From Dictyostelium discoideum (lineage: Eukaryota), in NCBI GenBank assembly GCA_000004695.1, contig CM000152.2, positions 1,824,001 to 1,888,000 of the forward strand: a DNA stretch of 64,000 nucleotides, in the 5' to 3' direction. The notes below the pieces were generated by a model, which saw only the letters and a program-made list of their open reading frames with translations, was not told the origin of the DNA and searched no databases. Below, piece after piece: positions 40,865-41,979 of this stretch; position 1 is the stretch's first letter; every line of letters starts with the position of its first letter. The position numbers were made by a program, and so were the translations under genes.

Positions 40865-41979
40865 ATTACCAATTAATGATTGAGCACTTTTTTGTGATGT
40901 TAATAAATTTCTACTGCTACCATTTCCATTACTACTACTATTCAATTGTGATGATGAAGATGATAAAGATAATGAAGATGAAGAAGACCTTAATTGACCA
41001 TTATTATTATTATTGTTTTGTAATTGCATCGAGTTCGAACTATTGCTGTTGATATTGTTGCTATTACTATTACTATTATTATTATTATTGTTATTAATAT
41101 TGTTACCATTACTTTGAGGTAGTATTGGTACGAAAACATTTGAATTTCTTTGTAGAAATGAAACAGGTGATGGAGGTGATGGTATTGGTGAGCCACTTGG
41201 AGAACTTCCTCCATTGTGACTATTATTACTACTATTACTACCATTGCTATTATTATTATTATTAATATTATTATTATTACCTCCTAAACCCATACCTATA
41301 CTATTACCAAATAAAGATGGGAAAGGGGATGTTTGTAATATATTATCTCCAGTTTTGGTTTTTTTATAGGGTCTTGCGTTGGCTCTCAACTGTTCCATTG
41401 AAATTTCTTCTGGTCCATTTCCAAATCCAATACTATTAACAATTGTATCTGGTACAACTGGAGGTTGAATAATAATTCCTTTTGACTATTTTTTAAAAAA
41501 TAAAAAATGGTGAAAAAAAAAAAAAAATTTTTGAGTTTTGTGGGAAAAAAAAAAAAAATTTAAAAAAAAATAAAAAAAGGGTTAAAAAAAAAATAATTAA
41601 ATTTCCATTTTTGGTTTTTTTTTTTTTAAAACAAATTTTATCATAAAAATTATTATTATTTTTATTATTTTTATTATTATAATTTTCATTATTTTTTATT
41701 ATTATTATTATTTTTATTATTTTATTTTTATTTTAATTATTTTTAATATTATTATTAAAAAATTATAAAAATAAAACTTACAGTCCATTTTGTACCACAT
41801 GCTTTACATCTCCACCTTTGAGCACCTTTATTTGTTTTTCCTTTTCTTTGAGAATATAAAACATCTTCAATTCTTGGACAATGGGCTGTACAATGACCTC
41901 TTGCAGCACCAATACAACATGCTGGTTTTTCTCCAACCCTACTGTTCATTTCATTAACCTGATGAATTGTTGACATCAT
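37211..41979 (-). CDS. class II histone deacetylase with ~900-aa low-complexity N-terminal region; complement(join(37211..41485,41782..41979)) (first exon tentative)
   Basis: C-terminal catalytic domain has class II HDAC motifs: 'RPPGHHA', 'DFDVHHGNGT', 'SIHMFEEGFYPGSGG', 'ISCGFDAHMEDHLASL', 'LEGGYN'. The ORF stays open for 29 codons upstream of the listed Met, back to a TAG acceptor at 41485. A GTAAGT donor at 41781 ends a 66-codon upstream exon that starts ATGATG at 41979. Both junctions are phase 0. Confidence 0.7.

Follow-up and report, generated by a model that had tools for sequence, protein, structure and literature searches.

What is a short, cysteine-bearing exon with the look of a transposase zinc ribbon doing at the 5′ end of a histone deacetylase gene? 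The question arises on the minus strand of a 64,000-nucleotide stretch of the Dictyostelium discoideum genome (contig CM000152.2, positions 1,824,001 to 1,888,000; hereafter the window), for which an earlier note made from the sequence alone had proposed that a 66-codon exon encodes an IS1595-type C4 zinc ribbon and is spliced onto a class II deacetylase, with a domesticated transposase fragment or a separate tiny gene as alternatives. The exon and the splice themselves turn out to be ordinary, and the point of interest is the conserved module at the N-terminus of an H3K27 deacetylase. The features of the gene are the following.

41782..41979, minus strand: exon 1 of hdaD, coding part; 66 codons, Met1-Thr66, placed by sequence, phase and start context
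41782..41931, minus strand: core of the putative zinc module in exon 1, residues E17-T66, continuing as S67-K68 at 41480..41485
41486..41781, minus strand: intron 1 of hdaD; 296 nt, 7% GC, GTAAGT...AATAG, phase 0
37211..41485, minus strand: exon 2 of hdaD, coding for residues 67-1490 and ending in the stop codon (37211..37213), placed by primer match and published exon count
41399..41479, minus strand: conserved linker or motif after the ribbon, residues 69-95 (GIIIQPPVVPDTIVNSIGFGNGPEEIS), upstream of Met96; 73% mean identity to orthologues
37226..38449, minus strand: histone deacetylase catalytic domain, residues 1079-1486, interrupted by Asn-rich inserts; PF00850, E 8.6e-83

The gene that contains the 66-codon exon is D. 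discoideum hdaD (DDB_G0279267), because both published qPCR primers for that gene match the long open reading frame exactly and uniquely, at 41170-41195 (minus) and 41030-41051 (plus) (PMC8094536). A peak table in supplement file 4 of the same study lists DDB_G0279267 as ‘exon (DDB0205687, exon 2 of 2)’, and the public hdaD model therefore already has two exons; within the window such a model can be built in one way only, from the 66-codon exon and the long exon. Public gene models thus already contain the exon, the splice and the fusion, and the gene structure is not new. Multicellular development is delayed in hdaD knockouts, and the catalytic domain, the only part of HdaD studied in vitro, deacetylates H3K27 (PMC8094536). 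That study also discusses how class II deacetylases are normally recruited via partner proteins such as MADS-box factors, and possible MADS-box partners are its sole pointer to HdaD targeting; it makes no mention of zinc or of an N-terminal domain of HdaD. A literature search on hdaD, which turned up one study and its preprint, returned no description of the N-terminus as a transposase-type zinc ribbon or of its extreme conservation, and the database Pfam tracks of hdaD orthologues list PF00850 alone, with no N-terminal domain. The assignment of the HdaD N-terminus to the transposase-type zinc ribbons thus appears to be undescribed so far.

On re-reading the sequence, the 66-codon exon, its peptide and its cysteine spacing are exactly as the earlier note had given them. 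The coding part is 198 nt long; its opening ATGATG is preceded by AAAA and, 14 codons further upstream, by an in-frame stop. The peptide starts AAAATGATG, ends AAATGGACT and carries its cysteines as C30-x3-C34, 23 residues, C58-x2-C61. Strands 1 and 2 and both knuckles of the proposed zinc module are encoded here. At 37% GC overall, and 31-41% in windows, the exon forms an island between flanks of 1-13% GC; together with its near-invariance in four other dictyostelids, this means that its signal far exceeds chance. The consensus GTAAGT donor that had been claimed for its end begins at 41781, directly after the last codon. At the other end of the intron, the TAG at 41488..41486 doubles as splice acceptor and as the in-frame stop bounding 29 open codons (41485..41399), which lie 5′ of the Met chosen by the ORF finder (Met96, 41398; 1395 aa from that Met), as the note had read them, and have a coding-like composition of about 30% GC. 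Phase-0 joining of exon 1 to the uninterrupted 4.3-kb exon 2 reproduces the predicted deacetylase of 1490 aa with one terminal stop. The 5′ half of intron 1 falls to 1-3% GC.

Comparison with other dictyostelids, which the earlier note had suggested as a check, returned the same N-terminus in four further species. Searched with phmmer against 1.84 billion representative proteins, the spliced N-terminus (126 aa) gave four strong matches (E 4e-54 to 1e-37), all of them histone deacetylases of 924-1194 aa that begin in the same way; the next matches came only at E ~2e-4, and nothing beyond the four orthologues scored at E<1e-10. The fourth orthologue comes from EukProt only, and the others have public models.

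KYR02367.1 (‘hdaD’): Tieghemostelium lacteum
XP_004360866.1: Cavenderia fasciculata, 924 aa
XP_012760048.1: Acytostelium subglobosum

Across the alignment of five species E17..K68 is almost invariant, and a GTKWTSK block spans the exon junction between T66 and S67, with KWT before it and SK after it. Met96 is not conserved, being replaced by or retained as I, M, L and L in the four orthologues. At three of three orthologue genomic loci (L001, L004 and L005) an intron lies in phase 0 directly after AAATGGACT, with ends of the form GTATG or GTAAG … TAG followed by TCxAAA and lengths of 88 nt in T. lacteum, 105 nt in C. fasciculata and 72 nt in A. subglobosum. Counting D. discoideum, the intron thus occupies the identical codon boundary in four species. 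At 296 nt, the D. discoideum intron exceeds these orthologous introns (72-105 nt) by a factor of three to four.

The splice is seen directly in T. lacteum. L002 and L003, Logan contigs of separate runs, each carry the complete T. lacteum protein as a single open frame and match the genome at 100% identity but lack this intron and one in the 5′ UTR; because both introns are missing at that identity, the contigs are most readily understood as spliced transcripts. A literature search for the run accession ERR3252989 found no paper. The 5′-UTR intron, delimited by the same contigs, is a second intron of ~497 nt in T. lacteum hdaD (L001:2470-2966; LODT01000004.1) that ends 34 nt before the start codon. 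In D. discoideum itself the splice is supported by the conserved intron position, by consensus signals and by the annotation, and the splice onto a class II deacetylase that the earlier note had proposed is borne out by the intron position in four species, the spliced T. lacteum transcript and the published two-exon model.

The same evidence bears on whether the 66-codon frame could be a separate tiny gene, with a 75-aa read-through product ending VSFIFIIF and a deacetylase that starts at Met96 (41398). The ORF finder does begin the HDAC frame at that Met, and 296 nt is long for a Dictyostelium intron. Set against this, five species share an invariant junction sequence and four the intron site, conservation covers the 29 codons ahead of Met96 but not Met96 itself, and the read-through tail consists of 7% GC intron sequence; the conserved intron, the spliced T. 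lacteum transcript and the two-exon annotation between them refute this alternative, and its probability is close to nil. A related proposal is that an internal promoter in the long intron yields, besides the full-length protein, a ribbon-less isoform from Met96. An intron three to four times longer than in other species and a Met available 29 codons into exon 2 would suit such an arrangement, yet the lack of conservation of that Met argues the other way, and we consider a second isoform very improbable.

The most conserved part of HdaD is residues 17-68, with a mean identity to D. discoideum of 91% and 85% invariant columns; the best windows of the catalytic core reach ~80% identity and 58-64% invariant columns. 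Over codons E17-T66 (50 codons) each species pair differs by 15-19 synonymous and 3-7 amino-acid-changing substitutions. Constraint on the module is thus very strong throughout the four dictyostelid groups, and a conservation above that of the catalytic core argues that the module must be functionally essential. Eight potential ligands are invariant in the five species (C21, C22, H29, C30, H33, C34, C58 and C61; six Cys and two His), a number more in keeping with two zinc sites than with one. In one possible division C30, C34, C58 and C61 would form the ribbon site and C21, C22, H29 and H33 a second site. The module is not the plain C4 ribbon of the earlier description, as its first knuckle is CxxxC and is accompanied by an extra invariant CC and two His. 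From Y42 to K68 the chain has nine K/R and no D/E, with a pI of 10.7.

To what is this module related? Transposase N-terminal zinc domains are the top four NCBIfam families in five of five species. IS1_IS1595_Zn (NF050000) matches at E 5e-6 over model positions 10-32 of 34 only; its 27.0 bits fall short of the cut-off of 28, which all five species miss, though all match. The other three are IS1249 and the IS1 transposase, with best E values among the five species of 7.3e-6 and 1.8e-4, and IS256_N_4Cys (E 1.2e-4). In Pfam the only match to a transposase-type ribbon in the N-terminus is Zn_ribbon_InsA (PF03811), which scores 21.8 bits (E 1.6e-4) for the 66-aa exon, short of the gathering score of 26.1, and matches five of five species with a best E of 7.1e-5. 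The peptide thus lies under the curated threshold of every zinc-ribbon family (27.0 of 28 bits; 21.8 of 26.1), an outcome that the earlier note had named as counting against its proposal. PF12760 (Zn_ribbon_IS1595) has no match at E<=10 in the five species, a negative to be read with the knowledge that HMMER filters may drop very weak matches. The NCBIfam and Pfam ribbon matches cover Q44-T66. None of ten shuffles in which every Cys and His was held fixed matched any of the four transposase families, and the signal therefore sits in the other residues (KG…G-QRWRCKACGTKWT) and not in spacing or composition.

Searches from the other direction lead to the same relatives. Apart from the orthologues, the best matches among 1.84 billion proteins are InsA-ribbon plus HTH proteins: the weak exhaustive-search matches P0005, P0008 and P0009 are genuine InsA-type ribbons above the Pfam cut-off, each followed by an HTH_23 match just below it (E 5e-5 to 2e-4). 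Aligned by hhalign to nine InsA-type ribbons, the dictyostelid profile gave a probability of 97.3% over 30 columns (S43-Q72), a significance inflated by a template made of sequences picked as best matches. Every comparison aligns the second half alone, that is, the hairpin, the second knuckle and the third strand, over ~23-30 residues; the first half of the module (CC-x6-HC-x2-HC-PR) has no counterpart in InsA or IS1595 ribbons. The InsA pattern CxxC ... CxxC is accordingly found only in part, since C58-x2-C61 supplies the second knuckle while the first is C30-x3-C34, and the residue aligned to the second Cys of the InsA CPxC is Ile37. In two AF2 runs strands were predicted at 40-44, 54-58 and 64-67, and a Foldseek search with the predicted module placed classical zinc ribbons at the top of its matches, none significant; a PDB sequence search with the N-terminal profile returned a chance match only. 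Pfam searches found no HTH family in the N-terminus or in the whole HdaD protein, tblastn of the module against the 64-kb window found no second copy, and no transposase remnant adjoins it. Weighing these comparisons, we regard the transposase resemblance as real, yet below family cut-offs, and the module as what its alignments indicate, a divergent member of the transposase-type zinc ribbons in an unusual host protein. What survives of the IS1595-type assignment is the likeness itself (IS1_IS1595_Zn at E 5e-6, negative shuffles, hhalign at 97%); the Pfam IS1595 model is without a match.

Several candidate relatives were set aside. Matches to Fer4_10 (E 0.003-0.016) were dismissed as cysteine-pattern noise and the C2H2-array matches P0006 and P0007 as a spurious CxxCG..FT. 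Reading the module as a plant Dof domain was rejected, the PF02701 model having no match at E<=10 in the five species. Among the InsA-type relatives, P0005 and P0008 (660-752 aa) have an architecture of their own, in which four tandem InsA-type zinc ribbons and an HTH precede a very long, apparently coiled-coil region rich in Lys and Glu; this is unusual for an IS1-like DNA-binding head.

The explanation that we favor, with moderate confidence, is that exon 1 of hdaD encodes a zinc-ribbon nucleic-acid-binding module that targets the deacetylase. Residues 1 to ~68 would constitute a small, very basic, Cys/His-rich zinc-binding module with a predicted core of a three-stranded zinc ribbon, the third strand of which (K64-K68) crosses the exon junction. 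We infer that its second half (…KG-x4-G-x-QRWRCKACGTKWT) is related by ancestry to the N-terminal zinc ribbon of IS1/IS1595-type transposases and that the basic hairpin may bind nucleic acid, most likely DNA, as transposase ribbons do. Bound in this way, the module could hold the deacetylase at particular chromatin sites or guide it there, and HdaD would carry its own targeting domain. The ‘domesticated transposase fragment’ of the earlier note can be entertained as a hypothesis. Its boldest form holds that the N-terminus is a domesticated, two-zinc, sequence-specific DNA-binding ribbon of the IS1/IS1595 type that makes HdaD a self-targeting repressor; we judge this doubtful, and if it were true, HdaD binding sites would contribute to the H3K27ac changes with which multicellular development begins in all Dictyostelia.

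Both halves of the favored explanation, the function and the ancestry, have a competitor. Zinc ribbons are functionally diverse, some mediating protein and RNA contacts, and the ZnF-UBP of HDAC6 binds ubiquitin tails. The HdaD ribbon might likewise bind a protein, RNA or some other ligand, or dock a transcription factor or co-repressor, and so have no part in DNA targeting. Residues 69-95, a conserved linear motif, look like a partner-binding peptide, no HTH follows the ribbon, unlike in the genuine InsA-type relatives, and class II deacetylases are normally recruited by partners, for example MADS-box factors (PMC8094536). The closest sequence relatives of the module, on the other hand, are all DNA-binding transposase N-termini, and the aligned half is strongly basic and devoid of acidic residues; a role confined to protein or RNA contacts appears unlikely on this evidence, if well worth bearing in mind. 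As to ancestry, the likeness to transposases could be convergence on a generic zinc-ribbon motif, the dictyostelid ancestor having gained its module de novo or from some other eukaryotic ribbon. All scores fall under family thresholds, only the second knuckle region aligns while the first half lacks an InsA or IS1595 counterpart, and neither an adjoining transposase remnant nor a related copy is present in the window. A local match of similar size, with 9/19 identities (CKAC..WT.G….PV) and crossing the junction, is obtained with a sequence that we take to be a plant Dof ribbon. Convergence would nonetheless have to account for four transposase zinc-domain models coming top in five species (E 5e-6 to 2e-4) and for none of the shuffles with fixed Cys and His matching them, as well as for InsA-type ribbons being the nearest non-orthologues in the exhaustive search. 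We consider it a plausible minority view, and common ancestry of the second half remains the reading that we prefer.

Placed beside known systems, the module is like an IS1/IS1595-type transposase ribbon in being short, N-terminal and strongly basic, and in a hairpin and second knuckle that share G-x-QR(Y/W)-x-CK-x-CG-x-x-(F/W)-T. It departs from that type in its first knuckle (C-x3-C versus CPxC), in a loop of 23 residues in place of ~15-19, and in the extra invariant CC and two His that raise the potential ligands to eight; moreover, no HTH or DDE domain comes after it, and the protein that carries it is a eukaryotic histone deacetylase. For the catalytic domain the closest counterpart is HDAC6 (class IIb), in which a small zinc module is also fused to a deacetylase, there as the C-terminal ZnF-UBP, whereas the HdaD module is an N-terminal ribbon of ~50 residues with no detectable sequence relation to ZnF-UBP, and HdaD has a single catalytic domain and long Asn/Gln-rich linkers. 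The hdaD orthologues share the N-terminal module, the intron position, the conserved middle region and the catalytic domain, and differ from the D. discoideum protein in being shorter (924-1194 aa) with fewer or no Asn repeats. With the plant Dof ribbon (PF02701) the points in common are CKAC-x3-WT-x-G-x4-PV across the junction and ‘CPR’ at the first knuckle, and the InsA-type relative P0005 also matches the Dof model weakly; since the model itself matches none of the five species, this is a lead and not membership. Should the module bind DNA, it would offer a direct route to HdaD target sites and would be another transposase-type DNA-binding domain recruited to a chromatin enzyme; should it not, it would still be an obvious handle for HdaD partners.

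The remainder of the protein is that of a class II deacetylase of the HDAC6-like kind, as judged by homology. PF00850 (Hist_deacetyl) scores 278.5 bits against a cut-off of 27.9 and is the only Pfam family above threshold in HdaD. Searched with an orthologue's catalytic domain, the nearest solved structures are those of HDAC6 (E 4.6e-70), followed among PDB relatives by HDAC10, Clr3, HDAH, HDAC4/7 and Hda1. The interval from the ribbon to the catalytic domain contains Asn/Gln-rich tracts and, between them, a conserved region at residues ~650-900 (38790..39540, minus strand), where dictyostelid orthologues are 36-51% identical per 50-residue window. This region is an uncharacterised domain of HdaD: it matches no Pfam family and gave no match in a word-index search of 5.8 billion proteins. 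For the spliced N-terminus the same search gave no match either, not even to the orthologues, and a method that misses orthologues sharing a 35-residue identical stretch returns negatives that do not amount to absence for eukaryotic proteins. Exact-match queries with the D. discoideum products of 1395, 1490 and 1489 aa and with the 66-aa peptide likewise returned nothing.

The surroundings of the gene are sparse. Directly upstream of hdaD, ~8 kb (42000..50300) contain no ORF of at least 120 aa on either strand, with a GC content mostly of 7-24% and one rise to 29% near 47700-48000, making this a gene-poor interval in a densely coding window. The whole 64-kb window contains no tRNA genes. A last observation concerns C. 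fasciculata, where the 924-aa model XP_004360866.1 takes ~700 nt (L004:5092-5790; GL883008.1) as an intron. By tblastn (E 1e-21 and 1e-67) this stretch codes for clear homologues of D. discoideum residues ~840-955 and 1056-1240, among them the N-terminal part of the deacetylase domain, and the model is probably mis-annotated and too short.
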